DNA of 64,000 bases from Patescibacteria group bacterium (GTDB lineage Bacteria; Patescibacteriota; CPR2; UBA1875; CAIMLA01), in contig JBGSPL010000001.1 of NCBI GenBank assembly GCA_041738615.1, positions 226,164 through 290,163 on the forward strand, read 5' to 3'. Below, in pieces: positions 39,031 through 61,080 of the stretch; the stretch's first letter is position 1, and each line of letters begins with the position of its first letter. The notes below the pieces were generated by a model. The model saw only the letters and a program-made list of their open reading frames with translations, made no database searches and was not told the origin of the DNA. The position numbers were made by a program, and so were the translations under genes.

Positions 39031-42076
<3,046 letters not shown>

Positions 42077-42507: not shown

Positions 42508-43239
42508 TTATGTGGAAATATTCATATCAGGATTTGTAACTGGATCATGTGAATTCTGAAGAAATTGAACAAACCTGTTACCTTTTTCGGTAAGGCTAAC
42601 ATTAAATCCATCATTAGCGATCAAATTAGAGCTTTGCAAGGCGTTAATGATGGCTATTCTTTCTGCGGCCTGGTTGTTAATCTCAGGAGGTAAATAAAAT
42701 GTAGCATAAAATTCTCGAAGAGAAGTATTACCTGAAAGGAACGATATTAAGGCACGCTTCGAATTCATCACCAGAAAACCATTTGCTAAATAGTAAAACT
42801 CATAACGTTCCACGTTGTTCGAACCACTAACGGCGACCGAACTTTCTGATACGCCTTCGGTTGTTCCAGCCTCAGTCTGGGTAATTGTACTTAAAGAATA
42901 CTGACGACCCGCCTTATCAACCCAAGTAAGTTTATTGGTATTTTTCAAAAAGTTTTCAATTGGCAAGGCAAATTTTGTTAGAATTATCAACATAATTGTA
43001 AAAAAGGATAGCGGCCAAGAGTTCATAACCACAATGAGTATCTCCTTGAACGATAACCATACCCGAGAATCTATACTTGTCAAAAAATCTAATATGTTCC
43101 TGCTAAACAGGAAGATAATAAACAAGAGAGTTATAGTAAATGCGGCTTTGTCTTTCATGGGTACTTTATACTCTAAATGATTAAAAATGTCTACCATGTT
43201 CCAAAAATATTCCGGACAAGTTTTTCTGCCGTGAAACAT
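42508..43239 (-). CDS. hypothetical membrane protein (AT-rich gene)
   Basis: 243-aa ORF, about 33% GC, two TM helices near the N-terminus. No motif recognised. Confidence 0.45.
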   Translation of the reverse strand: MFHGRKTCPEYFWNMVDIFNHLEYKVPMKDKAAFTITLLFIIFLFSRNILDFLTSIDSRVWLSFKEILIVVMNSWPLSFFTIMLIILTKFALPIENFLKNTNKLTWVDKAGRQYSLSTITQTEAGTTEGVSESSVAVSGSNNVERYEFYYLANGFLVMNSKRALISFLSGNTSLREFYATFYLPPEINNQAAERIAIINALQSSNLIANDGFNVSLTEKGNRFVQFLQNSHDPVTNPDMNIST

Positions 43240-43252
43240 TTTTGTTTCACAA
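43228..43252. repeat. 25-bp repeat copy 1 containing palindrome GTGAAACA-TTTT-TGTTTCAC
   Basis: GCCGTGAAACATTTTTGTTTCACAA, identical to 47695-47719. An extra GTTTCAC half-site follows at 43255-43261. Confidence 0.7.
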
Positions 43253-43352
43253 TTGTTTCACGCTACCAGGGTGTCAGCCACAATCTGTATTTTTTGCTAT
43301 CCATGCGGTATAATCACACTGTTTCTCACATATCTGCGACCTGGAGGTCATC

Positions 43353-43886
43353 ATGTACCAGAGACTTGTCCGTAGTTCGGACGTACCTATCACCGATGCG
43401 CAGAGGAAGTCGCTCGGCAACTGGGCCTTGGTCCGCTACTTCGGCTGGGGATTCGGACTCATGATCGTCCTGATACCCCTCAACTTCGTGGCCGTCCTCA
43501 TCAACCGGCTACTGGGACGAGCAATCCCTCCGAGCGGGGTTTGGTTCTACATCGGAATGATTCCATTCTGCCTGGTTTCGGCTCTCGTCGGCACCTACGC
43601 GCACTACCGCATCCGGCAGCTGCCGTGGTGGCGCGCACCCGAGCCAACTGAGACAGAGAAGGCGAGGGACACGTACCAAGACACGGCCGGTGACGTCTGG
43701 ATCGGGTTTGGTATCGCCTTCTTCGGTACAATCGCCGGTCTCTTCTCCGGCGTCTACTGGTTCTACCTCGCTATTCCTGCTGGAGCCGGCTGGAGCTGGC
43801 TTGTCTACAAGTCGGCCAAGGCGCAGTACCAGGAGTATCTGAGGTTGAAGCAGGAAGAACAACGGGTCCCCACTGCCGCTACGTAG
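43353..43886 (+). CDS. high-GC hypothetical membrane protein (4 TM)
   Basis: 177 aa, about 60% GC in a 45% GC context. SD GGAGGT 5 nt upstream. GC-rich hairpin plus T-run terminator at 43895-43960. Confidence 0.55.
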   Translation: MYQRLVRSSDVPITDAQRKSLGNWALVRYFGWGFGLMIVLIPLNFVAVLINRLLGRAIPPSGVWFYIGMIPFCLVSALVGTYAHYRIRQLPWWRAPEPTETEKARDTYQDTAGDVWIGFGIAFFGTIAGLFSGVYWFYLAIPAGAGWSWLVYKSAKAQYQEYLRLKQEEQRVPTAAT

Positions 43887-43991
43887 CGGTCAACGCGCCC
43901 AAGGCGCACGCAAGAGTACTACCGTACGACGGCGCTGCACTTTGGGCGCCTTTCGTTTTTGCCCTTACATAATCATGAGACTCCATGACCT

Positions 43992-44039
43992 TGAAATATT
44001 TACTCCCCCACATACGTATTACAATTACAGGCGTATAAT
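43992..44039 (+). promoter_or_regulatory. promoter region of ECF sigma gene: ECF-type TGAAAT-N17-CGTA plus TATAAT 6 nt before the ATG
   Basis: TGAAAT at 43992-43997 and ACGTAT about 16-17 nt downstream resemble the SigW/SigE-type TGAAAC-N16-CGTA. TATAAT at 44034-44039 leaves only 6 nt before ATG 44046 (leaderless). Confidence 0.4.
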
Positions 44040-44045
44040 CTATTT

Positions 44046-44615
44046 ATGAGCAAAGAAAAAGAAACTGATGAACAACTAGCGGTAATGCTCCAAAAAGGCA
44101 ATAAAGATGCCTTTGGGCAACTTATCGACCGCTACGAACCCGCTCTCCTGCGCTATACTCACCGCCTACTTTCTGACCAAGATGCCGCTGAGGACGTCAC
44201 ACAAGAAACTTTCCTCAAGTCCTATAGAGACATCCAGGGTTTTGATCCAAATCGAAAGTTTAGCTCGTGGCTTTATCGTATAGCCCATAACCAAGCTATA
44301 GACGCTATCCGCAAAAGGAAAGGTACGGTAATACTAGAAGAGGCAGAGAGTATCGCCTCAGAAGAAGATATACACGACGATATCCAGAACAGACTAGACA
44401 AGAAGCATCTGAGAACCAAGCTAGATACCGCTATCGCCAAGATACCCACGAAGTACCGTGAAACGGTGATACTACGCTTCTATGAAGAGAAAGAATATGA
44501 CGAGATTGCCGAGATACTCCACCTTCCTATTGGTACCGTCGGAACATATATATCTAGAGCAAAAGCAGAACTGAGAAAACAATTAACTGAAATTAATATA
44601 GAGGATTACCTATGA
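44046..44615 (+). CDS. ECF (sigma-70 family, group 4) sigma factor
   Basis: 189 aa with region 2 (DVTQETFLKSYRDIQGF...SWLYRIAHNQAIDAIRKRK) and region 4 (REKEYDEIAEILHLPIGTVGTYISRAKAELR). Confidence 0.85.
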   Translation: MSKEKETDEQLAVMLQKGNKDAFGQLIDRYEPALLRYTHRLLSDQDAAEDVTQETFLKSYRDIQGFDPNRKFSSWLYRIAHNQAIDAIRKRKGTVILEEAESIASEEDIHDDIQNRLDKKHLRTKLDTAIAKIPTKYRETVILRFYEEKEYDEIAEILHLPIGTVGTYISRAKAELRKQLTEINIEDYL

Positions 44616-45103
44616 GCGAGCTAAAGAACAAACTTTTGAAAAAAATCGAGAGCGAAGACCTGAAGATGAGGTCACGTGGCTTTTTTGTCTTTACTCGGGC
44701 CCTTATCGAGATTGCGCTAGTAGCGATATTGGTAGCTACCATATATCTAGTAAACCTAGCGATCTATTTGCCCAAACGAGGACTAGGACCCATTCGACCG
44801 CAAGCATTCCGGATAAATATGTTGCTCGATATAGTACCTTGGCACTATCTGATCTTCGGAGCTATCGGACTAGGGGTTTCTTTTTGGCTGCTATACAGGT
44901 TCACCGGAACCTACAAGAAACACTATCTAGTAATGGTGGCTGTAGTATCAATACTAGTACTATTATCTGGGGCTCTACTCGCCTTCAGCAATCTGAATGA
45001 ACGATTCGAAAACAGACCACATATGCGCGGCCTCTACATGATGGACGATCCTAGGCTTGGACCTGGCAGAGGTATGGGACCAGGATTCAACAGATTGAAA
45101 TAA
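44612..45103 (+). CDS. putative membrane anti-sigma factor (translationally coupled to the ECF sigma)
   Basis: 163 aa. Start overlaps the sigma stop (ATGA). Two TM segments. C-terminus RGMGPGFNRLK. Confidence 0.55.
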   Translation: MSELKNKLLKKIESEDLKMRSRGFFVFTRALIEIALVAILVATIYLVNLAIYLPKRGLGPIRPQAFRINMLLDIVPWHYLIFGAIGLGVSFWLLYRFTGTYKKHYLVMVAVVSILVLLSGALLAFSNLNERFENRPHMRGLYMMDDPRLGPGRGMGPGFNRLK

Positions 45104-45169
45104 ATTCCATCGGCGCACCGTATTATATATAGAGGTGCACACTCTAAAGAAACTAATCAAGGAGAGACA

Positions 45170-45676
45170 ATGAATAAGAAACAAATAATCGCCGCAACAG
45201 CCCTAATAGCTGGAATCGGTCTAGCAGGAGCCTACGGCATCCAAACAGCAAAAGCTGCTACCGACACAAATAGCTTCCCACCGATGATTCAAAAAATGGT
45301 AGAGAAATTCAATCTAAACACAGACGAGGTTTCGAAATTTGTAAACGAAGATCGAGAAGCCAGACAAACAGAACGAGAAGCTGACTTTGAGAAGAAACTT
45401 GCTGATGCAGTGACTGCCGGCAAGATCACAGAAGCTCAAAAGACAGCTGTCCTCGCCAAGCACGACGAACTGCAAACGAAGAGAGAAGCTCTAAGAGACC
45501 AGAACAAGGAAGATAGAGAAGCTCATCGTACAGAGATGCAGGCCATACACACTGAGATGCAAGATTTCCTAAAAGCCCAAGGTATCGACGAATCAGTCTT
45601 GCCTACACCAAAAGGTCCACAAGGTGGTGGAATGGGAATGGGCGGCGGCATGCACCGCGGTTTCAACCGACAATAG
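45170..45676 (+). CDS. secreted LTXXQ-motif (CpxP/Spy/ZraP-like) protein with Gly/Met-rich C-terminal tail
   Basis: Signal peptide MNKKQIIAATALIAGIGLAGAYGIQTAKA. KITEAQKTAV is LTxxQ-like. Tail GGGMGMGGGMHRGFNRQ. Confidence 0.6.
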   Translation: MNKKQIIAATALIAGIGLAGAYGIQTAKAATDTNSFPPMIQKMVEKFNLNTDEVSKFVNEDREARQTEREADFEKKLADAVTAGKITEAQKTAVLAKHDELQTKREALRDQNKEDREAHRTEMQAIHTEMQDFLKAQGIDESVLPTPKGPQGGGMGMGGGMHRGFNRQ

Positions 45677-45692
45677 GAACTGAATATACTAA

Positions 45693-45725
45693 AGAGCTCT
45701 ACGGAGCTCTTTTTTTGTGGCGAGA
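45693..45725 (+). terminator. rho-independent terminator of the sigma module
   Basis: AAAGAGCUCUACGGAGCUCUUUUUUUG. Confidence 0.75.
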
Positions 45726-45858
45726 AATTATATCAAATCTACCCGATAGGCAGAAGTTTTTTGTTAACGAGCATTATATACAAAATGTGAAAAGCCCCGC
45801 AGGGCGTTTCAGTAACGAAACGTCCTTTGGGGCGCATTAGTTGGATACGGAACAGCCT

Positions 45859-46524
45859 TTACTGTGGCTGTTCTTCTATGACTGGTAACCTGGCAGGAAG
45901 ATCCGGATTTGCCTTAAAGAACAAGGAAAGCCAGATCGCGAATGAGACAATGACGAGGATGATAAAGATCATCCCCCAAATCATGTACAGTTTGCTGTTA
46001 CGCTCTTCCCTTCTCTCTCTCGCTGCCTCCAACCTCGCGCTTTTGGCCCGGGCTGCCTTTTCGGCTGGAGTGGAGTAGTGCCAATGGGGTTGATGTGAGA
46101 TTCCTCCGCTGTAGCTACCAGCGGGAGCCGAGCCCCCACTGGTGCCACCAGAAGGAACGTAGTCTCCTCCGTAATTCCCGTAGGAACCAGACGGAGAGTA
46201 GGTAGATCCTCCACCAGCAGCCGGACTAGACGAACCGTCGGGCGGTCTATCCAGACGAGCAGCCACAGAACCAGCCACCGAAACACCGTACTCGGTACCG
46301 CTTCGGCTATCCCATGGCATTTGAGCCACATACTCCGAGTGGCCACCGGGTGAGGTTACCGAAGTGTTGCCAGCGAAGTTGGTACTGACGCTAGCAACCT
46401 CTTTGCCAACACCCCCAAGTAATCCTGGTTCGTGCACGGAGACGCTGCCATCTATCTTCTCAATGCCAACGCTCGTGACGTTGCCGAAGAAATCCTTCGT
46501 TACGGTCTTATCTCCCCATGCCAT
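45859..46524 (-). CDS. high-GC hypothetical protein, Gly/Ser/Tyr-rich with C-terminal TM anchor
   Basis: Start at ATG 46524 (MAWGDK..., SD GGAGGTG 6 nt upstream). About 60% GC. Low-complexity GGSTYSPSGSYGNYGGDY. One TM near the C-terminus. Confidence 0.5.
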   Translation of the reverse strand: MAWGDKTVTKDFFGNVTSVGIEKIDGSVSVHEPGLLGGVGKEVASVSTNFAGNTSVTSPGGHSEYVAQMPWDSRSGTEYGVSVAGSVAARLDRPPDGSSSPAAGGGSTYSPSGSYGNYGGDYVPSGGTSGGSAPAGSYSGGISHQPHWHYSTPAEKAARAKSARLEAARERREERNSKLYMIWGMIFIILVIVSFAIWLSLFFKANPDLPARLPVIEEQPQ

Positions 46525-46735
46525 CGTGAGCACCTCCAACCTTCTTGTCCAAGGAACATATAATGATTGGCGTATTTATACCACGAAAAGGAGTAAATTG
46601 CAAGTCTACAAAAGGCCATTGATCTTACCACGGACAAGATTATTCTGTTCAAAAAGGAAAACTTGTGCTAGAATGCTCGCACGTAATGATGGTATGGCCA
46701 CAAGTGGCTGATTTGACAACTAGATTGGAGCTGGC

Positions 46736-47599
46736 ATGGACACTGAACTGCTAGACGTCACTGATTTCGAGCGCATCGGTGGTGGAAAGACCAAGGACAT
46801 CTTCCTCGACCCTTCGTTCCGAGGTTACGTTCTCATCCGAAGCCGCGACGACATCAGCGCCGGAGACGGCGCCCGCAAGGACACCATGACCGGCAAGGCC
46901 GAACTCGCCACGACGACGACCGTGAACAACTTCCGCTATCTCGACTCTTGCGGCATCTTCAACCACTACGTCGCTGGGGTCGTGGACCCGGTAACCTTCC
47001 GGGCTCTCGAGTGCACACCGATTCCGATCGAGTGCGTCGCGCGCCGGTATTCGGCAGGCGGCTCGTATCCCAAGCGCGTTCCCGGCATTCCCGTCGGCCA
47101 CCGCTACGACCACCCGGTCGTCGAGATGTTCTGGAAGCAGGACGTCGGCGAGTACACCGATCCGTTCATGGTCTTCGATGCCAAGAAGGGGTTCTTCGAG
47201 CTTCACCCGGCCCAGGAGCCGACTACGGCAATGAACGTCCTGTCGACAATCGCAGCGAACGAGATCCCTGGCTTCGAGAAGTTCGCTGACCCACTCCAAC
47301 TGATCGCGACCATGGAGATGATGACCGACAGAGCCTTCTGCGCCCTCGAGAGGGCCTACAGGATGGTCGCTCTCACGGTCGTCGACATGAAGATCGAGTT
47401 CGGACTCGACAACGCGGGCGACGTCACGATCATCGACGTCATCGACGCCGACTCGTGGCGCGCCTGGGTCGACGGCGACCCGGAGAAGGCAGTCGACAAG
47501 CAGTTCTTCCGGGATCACCCGGACGAGCCGGCCGACACCTCGCTCCCCGCCTATCGCTACGTCGCCGAGAAATCCGCACAGATTCTCGAGCTGCCCTAG
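46736..47599 (+). CDS. purC: phosphoribosylaminoimidazole-succinocarboxamide (SAICAR) synthase, long form (high-GC gene)
   Basis: 287 aa with GGGKTKDIF, MTGKAELATTTTVNNFRYL, IPIECVARRYSAGGS and VVDMKIEFGLDNAGDVTIIDVIDADSWRAW. About 62% GC. Native-looking AT-rich promoter (TGCTAGAAT) upstream. Confidence 0.85.
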   Translation: MDTELLDVTDFERIGGGKTKDIFLDPSFRGYVLIRSRDDISAGDGARKDTMTGKAELATTTTVNNFRYLDSCGIFNHYVAGVVDPVTFRALECTPIPIECVARRYSAGGSYPKRVPGIPVGHRYDHPVVEMFWKQDVGEYTDPFMVFDAKKGFFELHPAQEPTTAMNVLSTIAANEIPGFEKFADPLQLIATMEMMTDRAFCALERAYRMVALTVVDMKIEFGLDNAGDVTIIDVIDADSWRAWVDGDPEKAVDKQFFRDHPDEPADTSLPAYRYVAEKSAQILELP

Positions 47600-47622
47600 C
47601 GGCATCAAGCAGCCATCACTAC

Positions 47623-47656
47623 GAAGGGGCGGTTTCCAATTGGAAACCGCCCCTTC
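47623..47656. terminator. perfect 14-bp stem terminator between convergent genes
   Basis: AAGGGGCGGTTTCC-AATT-GGAAACCGCCCCTT, followed by CTGCTTTT. Confidence 0.8.
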
Positions 47657-47694
47657 TGCTTTTATAGAGATAATAGCCTCGAATACATATAATG

Positions 47695-47719
47695 GCCGTG
47701 AAACATTTTTGTTTCACAA
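47695..47719. repeat. 25-bp repeat copy 2 (same as 43228-43252)
   Basis: GCCGTGAAACATTTTTGTTTCACAA. Lies between two terminators in a convergent intergenic region. Confidence 0.7.
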
Positions 47720-47783
47720 AAGCAAAGAGCCCACGAATTCAGATGAATCGTGGGCCCCCGCTTTGACTTGAATCTGGGTGCTG

Positions 47784-48186
47784 CTACGCGCTGAGCAGCA
47801 TCCTTGCGTCCGGGCTGTTCTGGGTGAGTATCTCGAGGACAGAGGTCGCGAGCATCGGGTCGTCGGTGACTACAGTGACGGTACCGTCGCGGCACAGAAA
47901 GAGATCGGCTACCTTGCCGTAGATCCTGAGATTCGCGTACTCGGTTGGGCCGACGTGAACCATACGCGCCTCGTACTCGGAGTCGATGACGTAGCCCTCG
48001 GCCTCCCAGTGATAGTCGATCCCGGCGACGTTGAATGCGTCCGCGATGGCATCCATGTAGCGTCGCCCGCGAAGGTTAACGTAAGCCCTAGCCCTGCCGC
48101 TAAGGAGTCCCATCAAACGACGGGGACCCCTCCCAACACTGAGCTCGAAGCCAGGTGGCAGACCATCCGTGATCGGGAAATGCATG
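47784..48186 (-). CDS. high-GC hypothetical protein
   Basis: 134 aa from ATG 48186 (MHFPITDGLPPGFE..., SD GAGGAGAG). GC3 about 75% on this strand. Hairpin plus U-rich terminator at 47724-47760. The track ORF extends upstream into AT-rich DNA. Confidence 0.5.
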
Positions 48187-48353
48187 GTAGCTCTCCTCTC
48201 ATGTGGCGAACTGGATTCCAGAATGTCAAAGCGAACCTTGAGCAAGGTGGTGACCACCTTGCTTGGGAACGTAATATCATAATACTTTTCAGCGCAAATG
48301 TCAATCCACACCCAGGTGTGCTCTGGTGATTTGCCAACCGAAGTTGGGGAGAA

Positions 48354-49934
48354 CTACTTCTTCTTGGAGCCCTTCCTAGGACGCTTGGCTTTGTGTTCCG
48401 CAACCTGCTTCTTGAGCTTGTTCTCTGTTCGTCTATCCGATACCCACTTGAGGCCCCACAGGGCAGCAACACCGGCGAGTGATGATAAGCCGATAGCTAG
48501 AGCACCGTTTAGCGACGAGTCCGCGGTTTTCTCTGCACCTGTGAACTTTGGATCTACTAAGTTGATTGAAGCGATTTTCGACTTGTCAGACAAAAGCTTT
48601 TGCGCGAGCTCGGTAATCTGCTCTGGATAATCTCGACCAATTTCTGGCAACTGCAAGAGTGCAGATAGCTCTGCGTCCACCCCTTCACCAAGGTCAATCA
48701 GCCCAAACTTCTCTGGCTCTGCCGCGATAGCAGCTACGAGCTCTTTAGCAATCCATTGGGCGCCCCCTCGGTAAGAAAACTCGGAATATTCCGAGGATCC
48801 CCAATCTAAAATCCGCGACAGTGAAGCCGACTTTTTCTCGGTAAACATGAGCTCCCCGAGCATACCCATAGTTTCGTCACGGACACCCTCGGCAGATTGG
48901 GCCTGCATAAGCTCCAGGGCGCTCGTGGCAGCCGCTACCTGGTCCAACCCTAGCGTCTCCTCGTTCTGATAAAACAAGTGCCCCATTTCGTGTGCCACAA
49001 CTCTGGTAGGCACCTCTACATCAAAATCTTGAATATAACTCTCGGAAACAAATGAACCGAGCTGCATAGCTAGCACTTGTCTTTCCTCTACTGTCTTTCC
49101 TGCCTGCATTATCTTTTCCGCTCGACTCTGAATATCGAGTAAGCCCTCTGACCCTATTCTCTCCTTGGTCTCCTGTATTTGTTGCTTCTTCTCGGCGGCC
49201 TCGGTGTCAGCACCTTCTTTGTAGATAAGGACCGACTTGTATCTAGTTTGCCCTTCTAGTGGGGCCGTTGTCTTCACGCTGCTGATGCCCTCGCCATCGA
49301 GTACTAGTGGGCCGATATTCACAAGCGGAACCATCCTATCGCCGACTGCTGTCTCCACTACCGTATGCTTTGCCGACTCTACACTAAAGAAATTTGTGAT
49401 AACCCCAAAATAATCCTTGCCGGTTTCATCTGCGGCGATGGCCAAGACAGACTTGGCAAAGATGCCATACTGAGCCATTGCCTCTGGGAATCTTCGCTGC
49501 ATCACTTGTTTGTACTGTTCGGGACTAAAAGGAGTTTCTTCGTGCAAGACTTGTGCGACTGCCTGGTAAGCATCCTCGTGTGCTGCCGTTTGTTCGGCTG
49601 TAGGGGTCACAAATCCTGCGACTGTCTCCTGGCTATCGGCCATACCATCTGCAGCCACTAGCCTCTGGTATTCTTCTATCGCTGCTATCGCACTTTTTGC
49701 TTCTGCTGTTATCGGCTGCTGTTCGACCGCAAAGTCGATTGGCTTCATGGTTTCTTTGATATTCTCTACAATAACTTCATTTCCGCGAAACTCTGTCGAT
49801 GCCTCGGCACTTGTCGGTTTCTCTAGAGCCTCGGCAGCTACTGCCGCCGCTGTGCCGGCAACCCCCTGTAAAAACTGCCTCCTGGTTATTCCTCGTTCAT
49901 CTTCTGCATGATTCTCGGCCATGGTGCGCTCCAC
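48354..49934 (-). CDS. Tat-signal zinc metallopeptidase-like protein (HEMGH) with C-terminal TM anchor
   Basis: N-terminal RRQFLQGVAGTAAAVAA twin-arginine motif. VVAHEMGHLFYQ HExxH. C-terminal hydrophobic helix plus KKQVAEHKAKRPRKGSKKK. Confidence 0.6.
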   Translation of the reverse strand: MERTMAENHAEDERGITRRQFLQGVAGTAAAVAAEALEKPTSAEASTEFRGNEVIVENIKETMKPIDFAVEQQPITAEAKSAIAAIEEYQRLVAADGMADSQETVAGFVTPTAEQTAAHEDAYQAVAQVLHEETPFSPEQYKQVMQRRFPEAMAQYGIFAKSVLAIAADETGKDYFGVITNFFSVESAKHTVVETAVGDRMVPLVNIGPLVLDGEGISSVKTTAPLEGQTRYKSVLIYKEGADTEAAEKKQQIQETKERIGSEGLLDIQSRAEKIMQAGKTVEERQVLAMQLGSFVSESYIQDFDVEVPTRVVAHEMGHLFYQNEETLGLDQVAAATSALELMQAQSAEGVRDETMGMLGELMFTEKKSASLSRILDWGSSEYSEFSYRGGAQWIAKELVAAIAAEPEKFGLIDLGEGVDAELSALLQLPEIGRDYPEQITELAQKLLSDKSKIASINLVDPKFTGAEKTADSSLNGALAIGLSSLAGVAALWGLKWVSDRRTENKLKKQVAEHKAKRPRKGSKKK

Positions 49935-50055
49935 TTATAGCAATATTTTACCCTTCTATATGTAATATTCAAAGCTGTTTGGACAAACTTCTATAAAGCA
50001 AAGTGCCCGCCTCCCACGGGCTACTCTGAAGTAGTGGTGGAAGTACGGGCACGTA

Positions 50056-50667
50056 CTAGGCGGGATCCTTCTGGAAGGTGAGCTGTTTCTCTTGCCCATT
50101 CCAGATTCTCACCCAGTTCTCGCGGTGGAGCCAGATGACCATAGCCCCCATCGCGAATGCAATCACTGCTGGCCAGGTCTCCAGGGTGTAGAGGTAGACC
50201 AATATCCAGAAAAGGCCAGCGATGGCGGTAGAGCCGATGGCAACGACCCTCGTGAGCGCGACTGCGAGCACGAAGATCACGAGCAGTACTAGAGCCACCG
50301 GCCACATCTGGTAGAAGAGCGCTCCAGCTCCGGGTGCGATCCCCTTGCCGCCCTTCCAGTGGAGGTAGAACGGGAAGGTGTGACCAGCGATGACGGACAT
50401 CATGATCAAGAGCATGATGGAAGCTGATGGGTGTTTCAGGACCGTGGCAGCGAGCCACATAGCCAGGATACCCTTGCCGGCGTCCAGTAGAAGGACGGCT
50501 AGCGCCGGCTTCCACCCCAGTACCCGATACACGTTGGTAGCGCCGAGATTACCGGAGCCAGACTCTCTGATATCGGTGCGGTAGAACACCTTACCGATTA
50601 CGAGAGCCCAAGAGATGGTACCGATGGCATAGGCCAGTGCGGCACATCCCACGTAGCTGAAAACCAC
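50056..50667 (-). CDS. plsY: acyl-phosphate:glycerol-3-phosphate acyltransferase PlsY (high-GC gene)
   Basis: GSGNLGATNVYRVLG and LLLDAGKG motifs. Start placed at GTG 50667 (SD AAGGAGGTG 6 nt upstream), because the longer track ORF would overlap fabK. Confidence 0.8.
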   Translation of the reverse strand: MVFSYVGCAALAYAIGTISWALVIGKVFYRTDIRESGSGNLGATNVYRVLGWKPALAVLLLDAGKGILAMWLAATVLKHPSASIMLLIMMSVIAGHTFPFYLHWKGGKGIAPGAGALFYQMWPVALVLLVIFVLAVALTRVVAIGSTAIAGLFWILVYLYTLETWPAVIAFAMGAMVIWLHRENWVRIWNGQEKQLTFQKDPA

Positions 50668-50707
50668 TTGCCCACCTCCTTGGGTGGTAGGAACGATGGT
50701 GCGGACC

Positions 50708-51676
50708 CTACTCGCCTTCGGCAAGAGCTTGGTTCGCGCCTTCGTAGATGCGGTCGACGATGGCAGCTGCAGGCTCGATAGCGTGGATGTGACAGGCCAC
50801 CTGGCCACACATCACACTACCCCACACCGTGTCACCCTGCTTCATCGCTTTCTCGAGGGCGCCGTCACCGAGGGCAGCCTTGCCATCCTCATCTCCGGCA
50901 GCCTCCAGCTCTGCGAAACGTTCCGAGAGTGCGTTCACGAGGACGCGCACGGGTCGATGGCCGATAGCCTTGGGCGTGTATGTGACTGTAGTACAGTCGC
51001 CCTGTGCCGCAACGATCATCTGCTTGACCTCATCTGCGATCTCGGTCTCCTCGGCTACGAGGAAGGCCGTCCCGACCTGAACGCCTTCGGCGCCCGCGAG
51101 GATTGCCTTCGCTGCACTCTGTCCGTCGTAGATACCGCCCGCGGCGATAACCGGGATACGGCCAGCGACAAGGGCGATGATGTCCGACAGGATGTCGAAC
51201 AACCCGTGATTGCCGATGTGACCGCCGGATTCGAGCCCCTCGACGATGAGAGCATCGACCCCAAGCTTCAGCCAGTAGTTGGCCCACTTTACCTCAGCGA
51301 CCAACGGGATCACCTTGACCCCAGCGCTCTGAAGCAAGGATACCTTGTCCTGACGAAAGACGCCGGCGCCAATCGTGACCGCAGTGACTCCACCTTCCTC
51401 GATGAGGACATCAATGAGAGCCTGCGCTTTGACTGCGTCGACTGCCATGATGTTCACCCCAAAGGGCTTGTCGGTAAGACCCTTGATCCTGCGGATTTCA
51501 TCCCGCAGTTCCTCGGGGGTCATTCGACCCGTGGCGATGATGCCAAAGCCGCCAGCATTGCTGACGGCTGCCGCAAGGGTGGCCGTAGAAACACAAGCCA
51601 TCCCTCCCTGTAGCACTGCCTTCGCTATTCCGAGCAACTCGCAGATGCGAGCGCCCCATTCGCGTATTCGTGCCAT
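50708..51676 (-). CDS. fabK: enoyl-ACP reductase FabK-type (NPD/nitronate monooxygenase family flavoprotein, high-GC gene)
   Basis: 322 aa. LLGIAKAVLQGGMACVSTATLAAAVSNAGGFGII, GVNIM, IAAGGIYDGQSAAKAILAGAEGVQVGTAFL. SD GAGGAGAGGAG. Confidence 0.75.
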   Translation of the reverse strand: MARIREWGARICELLGIAKAVLQGGMACVSTATLAAAVSNAGGFGIIATGRMTPEELRDEIRRIKGLTDKPFGVNIMAVDAVKAQALIDVLIEEGGVTAVTIGAGVFRQDKVSLLQSAGVKVIPLVAEVKWANYWLKLGVDALIVEGLESGGHIGNHGLFDILSDIIALVAGRIPVIAAGGIYDGQSAAKAILAGAEGVQVGTAFLVAEETEIADEVKQMIVAAQGDCTTVTYTPKAIGHRPVRVLVNALSERFAELEAAGDEDGKAALGDGALEKAMKQGDTVWGSVMCGQVACHIHAIEPAAAIVDRIYEGANQALAEGE

Positions 51677-51877
51677 GCCGAACTCCTCTCCTCGAGAGCC
51701 AATGGTCTCTAAACTGTCAATGAACCCCCAAGTAATCTATCGTTGGGAATTGGCTGGATTATACCCTAAAACCAAGCTTTATTCAACGAAAATATCGCAG
51801 AAACGCAAACACTCCGCCCCGCAGGCAGTACAACGGAGTGTTATACGCCCGCAAAGCGGAGTGGTAATAGAGGGCAG

Positions 51878-52645
51878 CTATTGAGCAGCCCAGACACGGT
51901 CACGGAGTGTCCGTGCAGCAGTGGGGATGTAGTTCATAGTGATGACATCGGCAGGAAGCTCCAATCCCTCAAAGCAACCTACGCTGCACGCCCGGAGCGC
52001 CATGACACCGCTGAAACCGTCGGCGCTGAGCGCTTTCAGGACATCCGCCCCCTTGATCCCGTCGTCGAGGCAACACTCGGTGAGGACGCCGGCCAGATGG
52101 CAGTCGTGGTGCGTGATGCGCGCTTCCTGAAGACTCGATACGGCGTAGACCGACAGGTCTCCCAGGTATCCGCGATACGCCTCCAGAGCTTCTGCTCGGG
52201 CAACAACCATGACGGCGGGCTTCACCAGCAACTCAAAGACCCCCGGGTGAGCGGTCTTCCAATCACGCCAACGGGTGTACTGGCCCTCCATGCTATCGAG
52301 GAGCTCGAGCAGGGAGAGAGCACTGTGTTCCGCCGGATTCGGGAAGTAGGCAGCGGGGTTCTCCCAGGTGTACTTCTTGTAACACCAGTCGCCCTCCCCC
52401 CTCTTCCAGAAGGTTACCGTGTTGGCGCAGGGCCCACCGATGAAAGTGCCCTGAGGAGTAACCACCTCCATCTCCTTGGCAGTGCTGCCCCAGGCGGGTC
52501 CCTGGCAGATGTACTCCACGAAGGAGCGAATCTGCCTTGCCTCTTGGGCAGTCACTTCAACGGAGCCAGGAAGCAGCGTAGCGATGTAGTCCGGTCTTCC
52601 AGGATCCTTCACAGGGATCCCCAGCTTTACGAGGTGCTCGTGCAT
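51878..52645 (-). CDS. high-GC Cys-rich hypothetical protein
   Basis: 255 aa. GC3 highest on this strand in sampled codons. Hairpin AACACTCCG...CGGAGTGTT downstream. A competing 281-aa plus-strand ORF is judged less likely. Confidence 0.4.
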   Translation of the reverse strand: MHEHLVKLGIPVKDPGRPDYIATLLPGSVEVTAQEARQIRSFVEYICQGPAWGSTAKEMEVVTPQGTFIGGPCANTVTFWKRGEGDWCYKKYTWENPAAYFPNPAEHSALSLLELLDSMEGQYTRWRDWKTAHPGVFELLVKPAVMVVARAEALEAYRGYLGDLSVYAVSSLQEARITHHDCHLAGVLTECCLDDGIKGADVLKALSADGFSGVMALRACSVGCFEGLELPADVITMNYIPTAARTLRDRVWAAQ

Positions 52646-52839
52646 ATTTCTAGCCTTTCTCTCGGCGTAAACTGCAAGTCGACGATATTATACGACGAAA
52701 TACCGCTTTCTACAAGCATAAGATGACACATCGGCGGGATAAGCCTAGTAATGGCAATAACGCAAAGGCTTCACTTTTTTCCTTAATTGGGCTATAATCC
52801 AAGCGGTTCTTTTGTATACATGCCGACACTGGGGGCGCT

Positions 52840-53238
52840 ATGAGCGAGAAACCTTTGACCCGTAGCGACATCGTCAGGGAAGGAAGGTGGCTGCTGATCC
52901 TCATCTGGATCTGGCAAGATGAGGCAGACATCGACAGGTACTTCGAGCTGGCTCGAATTCTCTTCGGGATGATCTTTGTGGAGCACAACACGGGCAAGCT
53001 TGCCGACCCACTGCTCTGTCGCCCGAGTTGGGCAAACCTGCCTCTTGCCAAGGCCGTCTTCGTACTCGCCAAGGCACAAGGATTCCAACGGGGCGAAGGT
53101 AGCCAGCTGGCTACCAAACTCTGCCACGCCAAACATACCCACAACCACTACCCCGTCATCAATCTCATGGTGATACAGGGAGTGCACCCCCGGGTGGCGC
53201 CTCGCCACGTTCCCCATCTCATCGCCTTGGTCGCCTGA
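52840..53238 (+). CDS. high-GC hypothetical protein
   Basis: 132 aa. GC3 about 70% versus GC1 about 55% on plus. Perfect TATAAT at 52786-52791 in the AT-rich upstream region. Competing minus ORFs rejected. Confidence 0.4.
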   Translation: MSEKPLTRSDIVREGRWLLILIWIWQDEADIDRYFELARILFGMIFVEHNTGKLADPLLCRPSWANLPLAKAVFVLAKAQGFQRGEGSQLATKLCHAKHTHNHYPVINLMVIQGVHPRVAPRHVPHLIALVA

Positions 53239-53336
53239 GAACCGCAGCGCCACTGGCGCACAGTCTCCCGCAAAGGAAGCGCCGTGCACCACTGGCGCTT
53301 CATCATTTGTCCAAAATTATGATAAAATATAGCCAT

Positions 53337-53816
53337 ATGAAAACTCTAATCACCTATGCCAGTAAATATGGCTCCACCAAGAAGTGCGCTCAGATGGTAG
53401 CTGCAGGCCTTATCAGTGAAGCTGATCTTGTAGACCTAAAGGAGTCCATCATAGTCGACCTAGATAAATACGACACGGTTGTCATTGGAGGCTCAGTAAT
53501 GATGGGTGTAATTCAGCGTGAGGTCCGCGAGTTTCTAAACAAATACGAAACCAGGCTGCTAGACAAAAAGCTGGGACTCTTTATTTGCAATATGCGGACC
53601 GATGAGGATGCGCAAGCTGAGATCGAGGTTGCCTACCCCAAGATCCTAAGGGATAAAGCGACGGCTGTAGAATACTTTGGCGGCGAACTAAACATGGAAA
53701 AACTGAGTAGATTTGATAAATTTATCATAAAATCAGTTACTAAGGAACGCGAGAATCTCTCTGCCCTACTTGAGCCAAACATAGACCGTTTTATCGATAA
53801 GATGAACCAAACCTAA
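53337..53816 (+). CDS. flavodoxin-like protein
   Basis: MKTLITYASKYGSTKKCAQMVA...VVIGGSVMMG flavodoxin fold. Start at ATG 53337. Confidence 0.7.
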   Translation: MKTLITYASKYGSTKKCAQMVAAGLISEADLVDLKESIIVDLDKYDTVVIGGSVMMGVIQREVREFLNKYETRLLDKKLGLFICNMRTDEDAQAEIEVAYPKILRDKATAVEYFGGELNMEKLSRFDKFIIKSVTKERENLSALLEPNIDRFIDKMNQT

Positions 53817-53884
53817 GAAATTTCCCGACAAAATAACATCCTAAAATTCTATAGAATATTAGGATGTTATTTTACGATAAGTAC

Positions 53885-57061: not shown

Positions 57062-58492
57062 TCATCTGTACTGATCTGGTAAGTCCGTAGATAAGAGCAC
57101 CACGTCGCCTTTTACGGTAAGGTGGGGTAGCGCCCTGTGAACTGCAACCGTAGACTCATACCACAGGACTTCGCCCTGGTAGCCAGAATCCTTGAGCCCC
57201 TCTGCAACTATTTCTGTCATCGATGTTCGGACAAACAAGACCTTGTCTATCTTGGCTGCAGTAATTTCCCTGGCAATCTCTAGGTGCACTTCTCTGTTTT
57301 TTGCCCCCATCTCCACGAGGCCTGAAGTAACGTAAAATTTACGGTGTCCCTGGAGGTCGGCGAGGAAATCGATAACAGCTCTTGCCCCATCGGGATTACC
57401 GTTGTAGCTATCATCTAGAATGTAGATGTCATCCTTACTGCTGGTTAGCTCTAACCGCCTCGAGAAGGGCTTCGTGGCTGCAACCCCTGCGGCTAATTGC
57501 TGATCAGTGACCCCGAGGGTATGCCCTATTTGCATAGCAGCCACTAGTGAGCCCACCAAATGAACTCCGAGTAGGTCGGTATGTAAATCCAGAGTCTCGG
57601 CTCCATTTTGTACTGTAAAGTTCGTCCCGGTAAGGTCCGATGTGGCCGCTGCTACTTTGTAGTCGCCACAACCAAAACCAGAGTAAAACATATGGCTCCC
57701 CCGCCCCGCTGCCTTTGCTAGTTTGTTTTCGGCATTGATATACAGTGGTTTCTTCCCGATGCTGTCTGCGAGTTCAAAGATTGTAGCAACGGTTTTCTCA
57801 ATAGACCCAAACCTCTTCAGATGCGACTCATTTACACCGGTAATGACTCCAATGTCAGGACAAATAACTTTTGCAAGCCTAGCCACGTCACCGGGATAGT
57901 ACTCGCCTAGTTCAAAAACGAGAACCTCTTCGTCTCCTTTGAGGGTTTTCATAAAGTTATGGATGCCAAGTAAGGTATTGATACTCCCGCCAGGAGCGGC
58001 GACGACTTTACTGGATGAAATCACAGTCCGCAGTATTTCCCGCATGGTGGTCTTGCCGTAGCTACCAGCGATGGCGATCTTTACCCCTGGGTGCCCAGCG
58101 ATCACCTCCTTGAGTTTCTTTGCAATCGCTAGCTCGTACGGTTTCTGAATTAGATACTTGATAGTAAGAACTGGGATCGTGGCGAGATAAGGGAGCAAGT
58201 ATGGGATTGCAACGATGCCAGCAAGCGGCCAGTACCCAAGTGTAGGGAAGAAACTAGCTGTTGCTGCAATCACGGCGAACAACATGGCCAAATACTCTAG
58301 CCAGATTGCACCCCATATCACAAGGGCTTTCTTCGTCTTGTCGAGCCGCTCCACGTTCTCTACCTTCCTAAAGTTCGCTACCTTAAAGTACCATTCGAAG
58401 TAGTCGCCAAGATAGTATTCACTCGCCTGCAACATATATGTGAGCGACCGGGGGTAGCGAGGGCTAAAACGAGAAAGAGTTCGTCTTAACAT
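57062..58492 (-). CDS. murF: UDP-MurNAc-tripeptide--D-Ala-D-Ala ligase MurF with about 110-aa N-terminal membrane extension
   Basis: Mur ligase P-loop IAIAGSYGKTTMREIL. Three hydrophobic helices precede the MurF core. Confidence 0.85.
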   Translation of the reverse strand: MLRRTLSRFSPRYPRSLTYMLQASEYYLGDYFEWYFKVANFRKVENVERLDKTKKALVIWGAIWLEYLAMLFAVIAATASFFPTLGYWPLAGIVAIPYLLPYLATIPVLTIKYLIQKPYELAIAKKLKEVIAGHPGVKIAIAGSYGKTTMREILRTVISSSKVVAAPGGSINTLLGIHNFMKTLKGDEEVLVFELGEYYPGDVARLAKVICPDIGVITGVNESHLKRFGSIEKTVATIFELADSIGKKPLYINAENKLAKAAGRGSHMFYSGFGCGDYKVAAATSDLTGTNFTVQNGAETLDLHTDLLGVHLVGSLVAAMQIGHTLGVTDQQLAAGVAATKPFSRRLELTSSKDDIYILDDSYNGNPDGARAVIDFLADLQGHRKFYVTSGLVEMGAKNREVHLEIAREITAAKIDKVLFVRTSMTEIVAEGLKDSGYQGEVLWYESTVAVHRALPHLTVKGDVVLLSTDLPDQYR

Positions 58493-59238
58493 AAGAAATT
58501 CCTAATCTCGGCTACCACATCGGCGGGATTTTCTTGGTGCACAAAGTGTGTAGCCCCTGGTATGACAATAAATCGCGAGCCTACTATCAATCCTGACAAT
58601 TTCTCGCCATCTTCTTTGGGAGTCGAGGTATCGTTCTCCCCCCAGATTAACAAGGTTGGAACCTTAATCTTTGCGGCGTACTCTCGCAAGTCCTCCTTGA
58701 TTGTCAGGAGAAAATTTTCTCTAAGTGCACCCGTATCTAGGTAGTCACTACCGATAGCCTTATAAAAACGCTTTTTGATAGTATTCCTATAGAATAAAAA
58801 TGGCGGCATAAAAGTAAGCAGTCCAAAGATCTTCGCGGCTGTTGCAACCGAAAGATTTCGCAACGATTTGCCCTTTGCTATTCCTGCAGAACCGATAAGT
58901 ATCAGCTTTGCCGTCTTGAACTTGCCCGTCGAAATACCCTTGATTGCCACCCTGCCGCCAAATGAGTGCCCAAGTATCGCGTATGGATCAAGGCCTAGTT
59001 TATCGATAAAATGATTTACAAAACTTACGTATTCCGAAATCCCCCAAGTCTCTTGTGGTTTCTCAGTTCCACTAAACCCTGGCATATCTAGGCGCACTAC
59101 ACGGTACTTTCCTGCGAGTTCAGCGGCTATTGAATCGAAGGTATGAAGATTGTCCATCCAACCATGAAGCAACAGGACGACTTTCCCCTTGCCTTCGTCT
59201 AAGTATTCTGTAGCGAGTTTATCGACAATTATCTTCAT
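58486..59238 (-). CDS. alpha/beta hydrolase
   Basis: HGWMDN oxyanion region. GHSFGG nucleophile elbow. Confidence 0.8.
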   Translation of the reverse strand: MKIIVDKLATEYLDEGKGKVVLLLHGWMDNLHTFDSIAAELAGKYRVVRLDMPGFSGTEKPQETWGISEYVSFVNHFIDKLGLDPYAILGHSFGGRVAIKGISTGKFKTAKLILIGSAGIAKGKSLRNLSVATAAKIFGLLTFMPPFLFYRNTIKKRFYKAIGSDYLDTGALRENFLLTIKEDLREYAAKIKVPTLLIWGENDTSTPKEDGEKLSGLIVGSRFIVIPGATHFVHQENPADVVAEIRNFLC

Positions 59239-59781: not shown

Positions 59782-59970
59782 ATGGCAAGGAAGAAGAAAC
59801 ACCACCTGCTCGTAACGCCGACGAAGGCTGTCTGCAGCTGTTGCGGCTCCCGACTCACTCGGCACTCAAGAGAGTGTCCCAAGTGCGGTCCGCTCCGCGG
59901 ATGGCGCTGGGCCGGCAAGAGCGATCCTCCGAAGATCGGAAATCCACTGCATTTCCTTGGCCGGGCGTAA
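59782..59970 (+). CDS. high-GC small zinc-ribbon protein (62 aa)
   Basis: CSCCGSRLTRHSRECPKCGP (CxxC...CxxC). Lys-rich N-terminus. Confidence 0.45.
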   Translation: MARKKKHHLLVTPTKAVCSCCGSRLTRHSRECPKCGPLRGWRWAGKSDPPKIGNPLHFLGRA

Positions 59971-60005
59971 CCTTTCGCCAGTCCAAGAAGACAAGTCACA
60001 CATGC

Positions 60006-60047
60006 GAAGGCCGCGACCCGTTAGGGTTCGCGGCCTTCCGCTTTTAT
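60006..60047 (+). terminator. strong GC-rich terminator after the zinc-ribbon ORF
   Basis: GAAGGCCGCGACCC-GTTA-GGGTTCGCGGCCTTC, 13 of 14 bp paired, followed by CGCTTTTATC. Confidence 0.7.
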
Positions 60048-60144
60048 CAATTATGTATCGTTTATCAATATTATGAATGGGGCCGCAAGCGCGCCCCCAT
60101 CCTTGATGGTTATGCGCTTGCGGCCAGGAGTCGTACTGTGGCTG

Positions 60145-60585
60145 CTAGGGGTGAGATGAATTGACGATATCAACCACCTCCGAAGCTCCCCACAGCAGCA
60201 ATTCCTGAAATGCGGGGTCCATGATGCCAATCGATTGCCAGTACTTCACGATATCGAGATACTCGCCGAAGTAGTCCAGGATGAGTCGATGAAACTCATC
60301 CAAAAGCCCAGCCACTTCCATGCCATGATCCAATACGGCCTCGCCGTTTAGGATATGGCACATAGTGACTGCCGCCTGCCGAGAATCCAAACCGCTAGGT
60401 AGCGGCATGCGTAACGGCACCGGATGCTGCTTGATGACGGCCCATTTGCCTTCGCTGACCTCTTGGGGAACATACTGAGCGTCGGCGTTGCCCGTCTCTA
60501 TCAGGCTGCGAAGCTTCTTCGCAAACCTCTCTAGCTCGATCCTCCTGAAGAGTTCTCTTTCTTCGCCAGCCACATCTAACACCAC
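60145..60585 (-). CDS. hypothetical protein (moderately high GC)
   Basis: 146-aa ORF. 12-bp perfect inverted repeat GGCCGCAAGCGC...GCGCTTGCGGCC at 60083-60127 downstream. Confidence 0.45.
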   Translation of the reverse strand: MVLDVAGEERELFRRIELERFAKKLRSLIETGNADAQYVPQEVSEGKWAVIKQHPVPLRMPLPSGLDSRQAAVTMCHILNGEAVLDHGMEVAGLLDEFHRLILDYFGEYLDIVKYWQSIGIMDPAFQELLLWGASEVVDIVNSSHP

Positions 60586-60679
60586 CTATCAATGTACGGG
60601 CCACCGCAGTGGCGTGTCTCCTAGCTGGCATCCTACCCTCAAACGAAACATCTGTCAACCCTAATGGGTAACTTTTAGG

Positions 60680-60796
60680 CTAGACCACTTCGTCCTTTGT
60701 TTTACGGTGTAGTTCCACTTCCTCGTAGTCCTTTTCCATATATATAGCCAATATAGTTGTAAGAATAATCCCAATTCCAATGTATAAAATATCCAT
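60680..60796 (-). CDS. candidate 38-aa single-TM peptide
   Basis: MDILYIGIGIILTTILAIYMEKDYEEVELHRKTKDEVV. SD GAGGTG 4 nt upstream. Confidence 0.3.
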   Translation of the reverse strand: MDILYIGIGIILTTILAIYMEKDYEEVELHRKTKDEVV

Positions 60797-60915
60797 GTGC
60801 ACCTCGATTATCAAAATAATCCAATTTGGTCATATAGTGGGCAATAGCGACAATAATTACCTCATCGCCGCTATGCCCTATACTTGATTTCCGTCGTTTT
60901 CTTTCTCTTGCGCTT

Positions 60916-61080
60916 TTAGTATTCTTGCTGAACCGAGCGGATAACGTTACTCATAAGTCGGCTACATGCCTCCAGCTCCCCGGCTACATGAAAGTGACGA
61001 TGATCATCCATTATATTTTTTGCGTCCAAGATATCAAGCTGCGCCTGATCAAGTATTTCAATTAGTCTATTTTTACTCAT
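60916..61080 (-). CDS. small ORF B (54 aa), tandem paralog of ORF A
   Basis: MSKNRLIEILDQAQLDILDAKNIMDDHRHFHVAGELEACSRLMSNVIRSVQQEY. RBS context AAGGGGGAATACTATGAGT is nearly identical to that of ORF A. Confidence 0.45.
   Translation of the reverse strand: MSKNRLIEILDQAQLDILDAKNIMDDHRHFHVAGELEACSRLMSNVIRSVQQEY

Follow-up and report, generated by a model that had tools for sequence, protein, structure and literature searches.

Patescibacteria, Saccharibacteria among them, are described as host-dependent bacteria without fatty-acid or lipid biosynthesis (PMC11665869, PMC10939385, PMC7242380), in which no route of lipid uptake or processing has been identified (PMC11665869, PMC7242380), and how they get and assemble their membrane lipids is an acknowledged open question. 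In one Saccharibacteria genome phospholipid metabolism was inferred to begin at imported phosphatidate (PMC6031116), and this published reconstruction of a single genome suggests that Saccharibacteria are without the step catalyzed by PlsY. The acyl-phosphate used by PlsY comes either from PlsX, which draws on acyl-ACP (ACP, acyl carrier protein), or from FakA/FakB, which draw on free fatty acids, and PlsC acylates the product next (PMC10146087). The closest described systems are incomplete. Nealsonbacteria have PlsY and PlsC without PlsX (PMC7242380), and Minisyncoccus archaeiphilus has scattered FabK, FabG, FabA-like and AccC genes (PMC12281837). Candidate Phyla Radiation (CPR) bacteria that have PlsY and PlsC without PlsX are enriched in lysolipids (PMC7242380), so that an incomplete pathway containing PlsY has a precedent. 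Here we describe, in a 64-kb window of bacterial genomic DNA (the whole stretch analyzed), a predicted plsY gene that stands next to a gene for a divergent relative of the enoyl-ACP reductase FabK.

The genes at this locus share with both sets that they are isolated lipid genes of ultra-small, host-dependent bacteria whose fatty-acid synthesis is reported to be incomplete, and they pose the same question as to the origin of acyl-phosphate or ACP. The genes described here differ from both sets in being strain-specific, foreign in composition and placed in a Saccharibacteria hotspot, and in that the FabK-like protein belongs to a distinct subfamily. The gain of a single metabolic function by a reduced-genome epibiont has precedents in an arginine deiminase system (PMC8764695), in respiratory operons (PMC11665869) and in a lysophospholipase (PMC12455944); the present case comes from the sequence of one metagenome-assembled genome (MAG). 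No report of the acquisition of PlsY or of a FabK-type enzyme by Saccharibacteria was found in the literature searched. An event of this kind is known, and the novelty lies in the particular cargo and in the divergent subfamily derived from FabK. We consider it highly probable that the stretch carrying the two genes (high-GC block B, Table 1) was acquired and that both genes are what they are described to be below.

Both genes lie on the minus strand, the FabK-like gene first, and are separated by a spacer of 40 nt (50668-50707). A Shine-Dalgarno (SD) sequence, GGAGAGGAG, is found at 51691-51683, 6 nt 5′ of the ATG of the FabK-like gene, and plsY has its own, AGGAGG, at 50680-50675. The longest possible open reading frame (ORF) for plsY starts at 50808 and would overlap the FabK-like gene by 100 nt; GTG 50667 was taken as the start because the PlsY domain begins 11 residues later, AGGAGG lies 7 nt 5′ of this codon, and the public annotation makes the same call. 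That annotation lists an identical 203-aa PlsY and 322-aa protein on a contig of 293,425 bp. A sequence-only reading that preceded this analysis had given the coordinates, the shared orientation, the 40-bp gap and the separate SD sequences exactly. The plsY gene is followed by a GC-rich hairpin with a T-rich tail, resembling a terminator. With a promoter-like site before the two genes, a terminator-like site after them and an SD sequence for each, the promoter, a 75-nt leader, the FabK-like gene, the spacer, plsY and the terminator would appear to form one transcription unit.

On the strength of its sequence, the 203-aa protein was accepted as PlsY, the acyl-phosphate:glycerol-3-phosphate acyltransferase, in an intact and standard form. 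It scored 148.3 bits against the TIGR00023 equivalog (cutoff 137.2; model positions 8-194 of 196), aligned with PF02660 from end to end (positions 1-164 of 164; E = 1.4e-44, 152.5 bits) and matched the solved PlsY of Aquifex aeolicus (PDB 5XJ5). In the Aquifex enzyme the residues that clamp the phosphate of glycerol-3-phosphate or line the 'phosphate hole' for acyl-phosphate are Ser35, Thr41, Arg45, His92, Gly102, Gly103, Lys104, Gly105, Ser142, His177 and Asn180 (PMC5700162). All 11 are kept, as S38, T44, R48, H96, G106, G107, K108, G109, S146, H181 and N184, and the call of PlsY made in the sequence-only reading is borne out. A Kyte-Doolittle scan showed hydrophobic stretches over most of the length, which would be compatible with a polytopic (seven-helix) membrane protein, with a helix count that is unreliable. 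The nearest PlsY homologue for which the context could be seen lies in a der-plsY-gpsA cluster, a common arrangement, so that the present plsY is parted from its usual neighbours. In contrast to the usual PlsY loci, it has neither a der/gpsA context nor plsX, fak or plsC nearby, and it occurs in a lineage reported to be without fatty-acid synthesis.

The 322-aa product of the first gene matched PF03060, a family that also covers FabK (E = 3.6e-57, 194.7 bits), and TIGR03151 (E = 5.8e-86). Against solved proteins, phmmer gave 153-205 bits to the FabKs of Fusobacterium nucleatum, Clostridioides difficile, Streptococcus pneumoniae, Thermotoga maritima and Porphyromonas gingivalis, compared with 124 bits to PA1024 and at most 111 bits to nitronate monooxygenases. 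An AlphaFold2 (AF2) model made with 36 homologues had a mean predicted confidence (pLDDT) of 90.7. In Foldseek it aligned with FabK structures (references PDB 2Z6I, 7L00, 5GVH, 9PL0 and 4IQL) at TM scores of 0.88-0.93 and root-mean-square deviations of 1.5-2.2 Å, and with the nitronate monooxygenase/PA1024 branch at TM scores of 0.75-0.88. His153, within ESGGHIG, corresponds to the catalytic histidine, His144 in S. pneumoniae and His145 in F. nucleatum (PMC12921513, PMC9260719). His240 corresponds by HMMER to the second active-site histidine (F. nucleatum His228), MAFFT placing it one residue off and the AF2 loop 236-240 being of low confidence. The flavin segments IPVIAAGG (AAGG) and QVGT.F (QxGT.F) are both present; the flavin mononucleotide (FMN) binding residues, which the sequence-only reading had singled out for inspection, are in this respect kept. 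With its predicted TIM-barrel fold, FMN segments and both histidines the protein resembles FabK, and in sequence and predicted structure it groups with FabK and is nearer to it than to the nitronate monooxygenases, with which no clustering was seen.

The same reading had named the protein a FabK-type reductase, and of this the kinship, the fold and the catalytic histidine stood, whereas identity with an ordinary FabK did not. Its score on TIGR03151 was 288.5 bits, 165 short of the equivalog cutoff of 453.1. Five FabKs among its own matches reached 481-523 bits on this model, and the studied FabKs of S. pneumoniae, C. difficile and T. maritima 501-503 bits; the F. nucleatum sequence, which is truncated, scored 422. 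One of the five (P0003) is encoded in a plsX-fabH-fabK-fabD-fabG-acpP-fabF cluster. Among FabKs of four phyla identity is 49-64%, and between them and the FabK-like protein it is 40-47%. At columns conserved in at least 90% of 35 FabKs, the protein deviates in 27 of 115, where the median among the FabKs themselves is 2 and the highest count 9. Residues invariant in nine FabKs are altered at 14 of 83 columns, among them Trp to Cys28, Thr to Leu159, Arg to Ala204 and His to Ala214. The residues regarded as invariant in the family include the pocket positions GAG-N-P, MAW, GHIGxLTT, GTRF and EC.IH. In or beside the ligand pocket, at sites taken from the F. nucleatum structure paper, GAG-Asn99-Pro100 is replaced by GAG-Val106-Phe107 with a one-residue insertion, and Pro119 by Ala. 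Further points in which the protein is unlike FabK are small insertions after GAG and before IPVIAAGG, a gene placed outside any fab cluster, and the finding of a single relative.

That relative (P0002, 57% identical) was the sole protein above 49% identity in a word-indexed search of 5.8 billion clusters. Searched exhaustively with HMMER, 1.84 billion cluster representatives again gave it as the one related cluster, at 352 bits, the runner-up scoring 205. A metagenome scan with the alignment of the two proteins yielded none above 48% identity, ordinary FabKs being matched through a generic KxLTDKPF pattern. Of the 27 lost positions 21 are lost in P0002 too, eight of them with the identical replacement, and the subfamily keeps 88 of the 115 conserved columns. 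That copies only 57% identical have derived residues in common speaks against decay and for selection on a modified function. A ratio of nonsynonymous to synonymous change (dN/dS) between the two genes was dropped, synonymous sites being saturated at 65% nt identity. In a neighbour-joining (distance) tree the two proteins share a long stem, with near-zero internal branches around it, and because of both features neither a sister group nor a donor is claimed; the nearest neighbours by distance are FabKs of fatty-acid synthesis clusters. These sequence comparisons place the protein in a divergent two-member subfamily that is derived from FabK and is not the housekeeping FabK. It is a candidate for a new specificity in an enzyme family that is a drug target.

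The gene for P0002 lies at 657-1598 of a 2-kb contig (L001; Joint Genome Institute, JGI, 3300038998), between an upstream gene for desulfoferrodoxin (superoxide reductase) and a downstream gene for a TipAS-domain protein. Its GC at third codon positions (GC3) is 0.82, against 0.34 and 0.48 in its neighbours. A terminator hairpin comes immediately after it; the gene is monocistronic and without plsY. The -10 box and a leader of about 75 nt can be aligned between the two FabK-like genes (565-656 of the 2-kb contig with 51677-51765 of the window). The local alignment score of the leaders was 29 versus 16 ± 2.1 for shuffled sequences and the global score 55 versus 28.8 ± 5.0, neither being reached in any of 1000 shuffles. 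The leader hairpin (Table 1) has six pairs, three of which are kept through double substitutions, in a comparison of two sequences only. The leader had no match in Rfam. It may act in cis as a regulatory leader or belong to a mobile cassette. The leader also has a 14-nt match at position 46411, which does not extend and was taken to be compatible with chance.

Sequence evidence assigns the window to a genome of Saccharibacteria (TM7), a member of Patescibacteria, because every relative of the flanking Ddl is from this group. A Ddl scan with one genome per GTDB species returned seven loci, all Candidatus Saccharibacteria / Saccharimonadia, at 44-93% identity. The reduced-genome host assumed in the sequence-only reading is supported by this lineage. 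The housekeeping genes of the window, which include ftsZ/ftsA, secDF, infB, priA, hisS, nrdD/nrdG/nrdR, murF and ddl, are compact, and many other ORFs lack any family match. Block B is part of a variable region that has the 23S rRNA gene on one side and ddl on the other. The closest relative (L005; Ddl 93% identical, tblastx identity of about 99% across the 23S region) has the order 16S/tRNA-Ala, hydrolase, murF, ddl, two small genes (including the 88-aa gene of Table 1), 3.4 kb and 23S-5S. Its 3.4 kb hold low-GC genes unrelated to any in the window (tblastx of L005 6516-9952 against window 53882-42553). Another Saccharibacterium, represented by four independent JGI assemblies (L013-L016; Ddl 83%), has about 4.8 kb at the site, and a third relative (L002; Ddl 75% identical) has no match there. 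Neither plsY nor the FabK-like gene occurs between ddl and 23S in L005, L013 or L002, the three relatives with sequence at this place. The interval is a hotspot, whose cargo differs among the close relatives examined. The rRNA genes around it are unlinked: 23S lies at 39031-42074 and 5S at 38788-38903, there is no joined 16S-23S operon in the window, and tRNA-Ala at 63612-63687, 21 kb from 23S/5S, flags the 3′ side of a probable 16S locus that leaves the window at its end. The murF-ddl genes and the variable region sit between 23S/5S and tRNA-Ala, and in L005 the genes are split likewise, the spacer being shorter at about 9 kb.

In composition the two genes stand out from the window. Their GC contents are 0.583 (plsY) and 0.606 (FabK-like gene), against 0.478 for the whole window, and their GC3 values 0.74 and 0.69; the two further ORFs of block B, of 255 and 132 aa, both have a GC3 of 0.72. 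Most other genes of the window (about 40 of 55) have GC3 values of 0.40-0.57. The high GC reported earlier for the pair was thus confirmed, and the notion of a high-GC pair was not, since the stretch is larger, extending to about 53,250 and including these two ORFs. Its edges, drawn with a 400-nt sliding GC window, are approximate, and a second high-GC block lies at 45.8-48.3 kb. The best matches of PlsY are only 44-48% identical, and those with names are from uncultured Actinobacteria, Coriobacteriia and other non-patescibacterial groups. Besides the one relative at 57%, the best matches of the FabK-like protein are FabKs of 44-49% identity from Desulfotomaculales, other Bacillota and Actinobacteria MAGs. 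Taxon names were available for a minority of the homologues only. Horizontal acquisition, proposed in the sequence-only reading, is supported by the foreign GC by codon position, the absence of the genes from the site in the three relatives and the non-patescibacterial origin of the nearest homologues. As to direction, a gain in this lineage would be the more economical reading when set against loss from three relatives. Since Saccharibacteria are naturally competent (PMC11665869), transformation offers a possible route of entry. Scans of viral contigs returned at best a 44%-identical FabK and no PlsY, with no sign of a phage vehicle.

Taken as a whole, the locus is best explained as an acquired PlsY beside an acquired FabK-derived enzyme, and not as a demonstrated lipid module; to this complete explanation we give a slight preference. 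Several observations weigh against it. At block B, Pfam scans and a repeat search revealed neither an integrase or transposase nor a tRNA target or flanking repeat; no direct or inverted repeats bracket it, and the sole tRNA of the window lies at 63.6 kb. The affinities of the two proteins with Actinobacteria and Firmicutes, which the sequence-only reading had proposed to follow by phylogeny, do exist in sequence, yet they are weak and allow no donor lineage to be named. The high GC3 of both FabK-like genes and their shared AT-rich leader are unlike a simple recent transfer from a single high-GC donor. The pair is known from one assembled genome, on which its linkage to Saccharibacteria flanks also depends. 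In agreement with the earlier statement that the window holds no other fatty-acid synthesis genes, Pfam scans of its approximately 55 ORFs over 64 kb detected no PlsX, FakA/FakB-DegV, PlsC, ACP, CdsA or Fab protein. PlsY may therefore be without a substrate, or the lipid genes of this genome may be more numerous than supposed, and the altered pocket could have taken the FabK-like enzyme off acyl chains altogether.

PlsY would most likely move an acyl chain from acyl-phosphate to glycerol-3-phosphate, giving lysophosphatidic acid. Scavenged fatty acid would be the only sensible acyl supply in a cell without fatty-acid synthesis. With a Fak-type kinase encoded in the genome, PlsY would allow the cell its own lysophosphatidic and phosphatidic acid, and hence phospholipid backbones from scavenged fatty acids rather than imported finished lipids. 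The FabK-like enzyme would most likely use NAD(P)H and FMN to reduce an activated C=C bond, in a substrate of the enoyl-thioester type, outside the cycle of type II fatty-acid synthesis (FAS II). Whether PlsY serves lipid salvage here we judge to be evenly balanced, and action of the FabK-like enzyme on acyl chains is proposed more tentatively, with the balance slightly against it. The building of lipids from scavenged chains, as envisaged in the sequence-only reading, retains an intact PlsY and lacks an acyl-phosphate source and a second acyltransferase in the window. The pairing of the two genes, on which it also built, is not conserved. The P0002 unit stands alone without plsY, which makes the pairing specific to this genome and leaves no evidence of a conserved module, and ordinary homologues of the two proteins lie in separate loci. 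An ordinary FabK makes acyl-ACP, which PlsY cannot use without PlsX, so that a biochemical link between the two products would be indirect at best. In the pairing, two cargo genes were probably put together locally, and it is probably no obligate module of two enzymes.

We consider unlikely, if worth keeping in view, an explanation in which PlsY is functional and the FabK-like protein has a non-lipid redox role (NADH:quinone reduction, nitroalkane-type detoxification or oxidative stress), the two being linked by chance. The active-site changes common to both subfamily members would fit it, as would the desulfoferrodoxin and TipAS-domain neighbours of P0002, and the nitronate monooxygenase/FabK fold includes the NADH:quinone reductase PA1024 and the dehydrogenase/isomerase FabX (PMC8626469). 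On the other hand, the scores to FabK, at 186-205 bits, are well above those to PA1024 and the nitronate monooxygenases, at 124 bits or less, both the GGH histidine typical of FabK and the second histidine are kept, and gene neighbours known from one 2-kb contig are a weak argument.

Less likely again is a true FabK enoyl-ACP reductase that forms with PlsY a module for building or remodelling lipids, perhaps with FAS II or PlsX/PlsC elsewhere in the genome. FabK sequences and structures are indeed the closest characterized relatives, the catalytic histidine and the FMN segments are retained, the genes are co-oriented and 40 nt apart, and the presence of P0003 in a plsX-fabH-fabK cluster points to a lipid-related ancestry; the scattered FabK, FabG and FabA-like genes of a cultured patescibacterium (PMC12281837) offer a parallel. 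Against this explanation, the protein falls far below an equivalog cutoff that the FabKs of Thermotoga, Streptococcus and Clostridioides clear at about 500 bits, and pocket and invariant residues are lost, most of the losses being common to P0002. The window has neither ACP nor another Fab gene over 64 kb, P0002 stands alone without plsY or fab genes, and the acyl-ACP product of a FabK would be unusable by PlsY without PlsX (PMC10146087). A bolder reading of the locus is speculative, and its chances we put lower still: the promoter, leader and FabK-like gene would be a self-contained cassette that encodes a new enzyme class derived from FabK and moves between low-GC host-dependent bacteria, and with PlsY it would reduce activated scavenged or unsaturated chains and then esterify them to glycerol-3-phosphate, providing one Saccharibacteria lineage with a host-independent entry into phospholipids, the leader acting as an RNA that senses lipid or flavin.

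It is very unlikely that the genes are neutral passengers, foreign DNA taken into a hotspot of a competent organism, unused and bound to decay. The hotspot cargo differs in every relative examined, the window has no partner genes for either enzyme, and the FabK-like protein is on a long branch, all of which such a view would accommodate. However, both ORFs are full length against the family models with no frameshift or stop, PlsY keeps its entire set of functional residues, and SD sites, predicted promoter and terminator are in place; the 88 of 115 conserved columns and the eight identical derived residues at 57% identity argue for purifying selection. An artefact of assembly or binning, by which a Saccharibacteria contig would have received DNA of a higher-GC organism, is scarcely credible in spite of the abrupt GC change and the occurrence of the pair in a single assembly. 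Block B lies within a contig of 293 kb and is flanked on either side by Saccharibacteria core genes and rRNA, the two high-GC blocks are separated by a gene of native composition (48354-49934), and the intergenic promoter regions are of native-like GC. A purC-like high-GC cassette, shared at this hotspot by the four independent JGI assemblies of another Saccharibacterium, indicates that such cassettes are real in this lineage.

A Saccharibacterium with an acquired, apparently intact PlsY would be a natural experiment in the acquisition of membrane lipids. If its genome supplies acyl-phosphate and a second acyltransferase, phosphatidic acid could be made from free fatty acids and the needs to be met by the host would change. 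The practical weight is limited by the single uncultured genome and by the lack of partner genes in the window.

Table 1. Positions of the two-gene unit, its signals and the surrounding elements in the window.
Feature	Coordinates	Strand	Remarks
FabK-like gene	51676..50708	minus	322 aa; ATG 51676, stop TAG 50710-50708
plsY	50667..50056	minus	203 aa; GTG 50667, stop 50058-50056
Predicted sigma-70-type promoter-like site, TTGAAT-17 nt-TATAAT	51786..51758	minus	10/12 consensus matches; 5′ of FabK-like gene
5′ leader hairpin, UUCCCA...UGGGGG	51725..51749	minus	also in the leader of the related L001 gene
Terminator-like hairpin, GCCCGTGGGAGGCGGGC then ACTTTGCTTT	50005..50021	minus	35 nt past plsY stop
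High-GC block B	49995..53250		about 3.3 kb, 0.57-0.62 GC; plsY, FabK-like gene, two unknown ORFs
255-aa ORF, no assigned function	51878..52645	minus	GC3 0.72; in block B, precedes FabK-like gene
132-aa ORF, no assigned function	52840..53238	plus	GC3 0.72; right edge of block B; gene status uncertain
Variable region	42553..53882		11.3 kb, 23S rRNA gene to conserved 88-aa gene near ddl; tblastx synteny
purC-like cassette	46666..47672	plus	SAICAR-synthetase family, GC3 0.84; second foreign-looking block; gene 46736-47599

Of the other occupants of block B, the 255-aa ORF had no match in Pfam, NCBIfam, PHROG or PADLOC. It is followed by a hairpin and T-tract (51840-51801) that was read by eye and was not flagged by the scan. 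A single-sequence AF2 model of its product was discarded at a pLDDT of 35. Between the two high-GC blocks, the gene at 48354-49934 (minus strand) has near-native composition and encodes a 526-aa protein without a family match. Its twin-arginine signal (RRQFLQGVAG), HEMGH zinc-protease motif, C-terminal membrane anchor and lysine-rich tail are features of a protein that may be a secreted or surface metalloprotease.

The purC-like gene of the second block is an orphan and divergent; it scored 135 bits against PF01259 and 76 bits against TIGR00081, where the cutoff is 190. An enzyme of the purine pathway is unexpected in a lineage that has no purine synthesis. With L013 9929-10938 (also in L014-L016), at the same hotspot, the gene shares 84% (aa) and 83% (nt) identity, and GC is high in both, whereas the flanking ddl-murF DNA of the window and L013 is only 68% identical. 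The cassette looks like one exchanged or acquired independently of the core genome. To its left, 45800-46735 has a raised GC of 0.53-0.60, and its sole long ORF (45859-46539, minus strand) has a flat codon-position GC of 0.55, 0.54 and 0.56, atypical of genes; this stretch may represent a remnant that has decayed, or else a non-coding portion of a cassette.

An exact 25-nt direct repeat, GCCGTGAAACATTTTTGTTTCACAA, occurs at 43228-43252 and 47695-47719, the copies being 4467 nt apart; chance alone would give about 0.01 matches. It has a palindromic core, GTGAAACA-TTTT-TGTTTCAC. The first copy spans the start codon and first four codons of the ORF at 42508-43239, and the second leaves a 14-codon stub. 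The repeat could be a recombination scar around the segment with a sigma factor and the purC-like gene, or a regulator binding site. The sigma factor, of the extracytoplasmic function (ECF) type (Sigma70_r2 and r4_2), overlaps by 4 nt a 163-aa ORF without a family match, possibly its anti-sigma factor; both (44046-45103, plus strand) lie inside the variable region and are absent from L005. Nine ORFs without assignment in the variable region and the 746-aa ORF at 36359-38599 outside it had no PHROG match. The only PADLOC match among them was a weak one to WH_III-A (E = 2.8e-4) by the 243-aa ORF at 42508-43239.

Two segments outside the variable region are likewise absent from L005. One, at 35686-38711, carries a sortase gene and the gene for the 746-aa protein, which has no family match. 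The other, 3.5 kb at 59970-63494, carries an M23 peptidase gene (61775-62281, GC3 0.73), a 146-aa ORF (GC3 0.65) and a gene for a rhodanese-domain protein. Together with the ORF at 43353-43886, which has a GC3 of 0.75, these segments indicate a genome peppered with small inserts of foreign composition. The gene at 58486-59238 (minus strand) encodes an alpha/beta-hydrolase (Abhydrolase_1/6, Hydrolase_4) and lies directly 5′ of murF-ddl in every Saccharibacteria locus examined (L002-L008, L013). Since Hydrolase_4 includes lysophospholipases and monoacylglycerol lipases, this protein could, by analogy, be a native lipid-scavenging enzyme.

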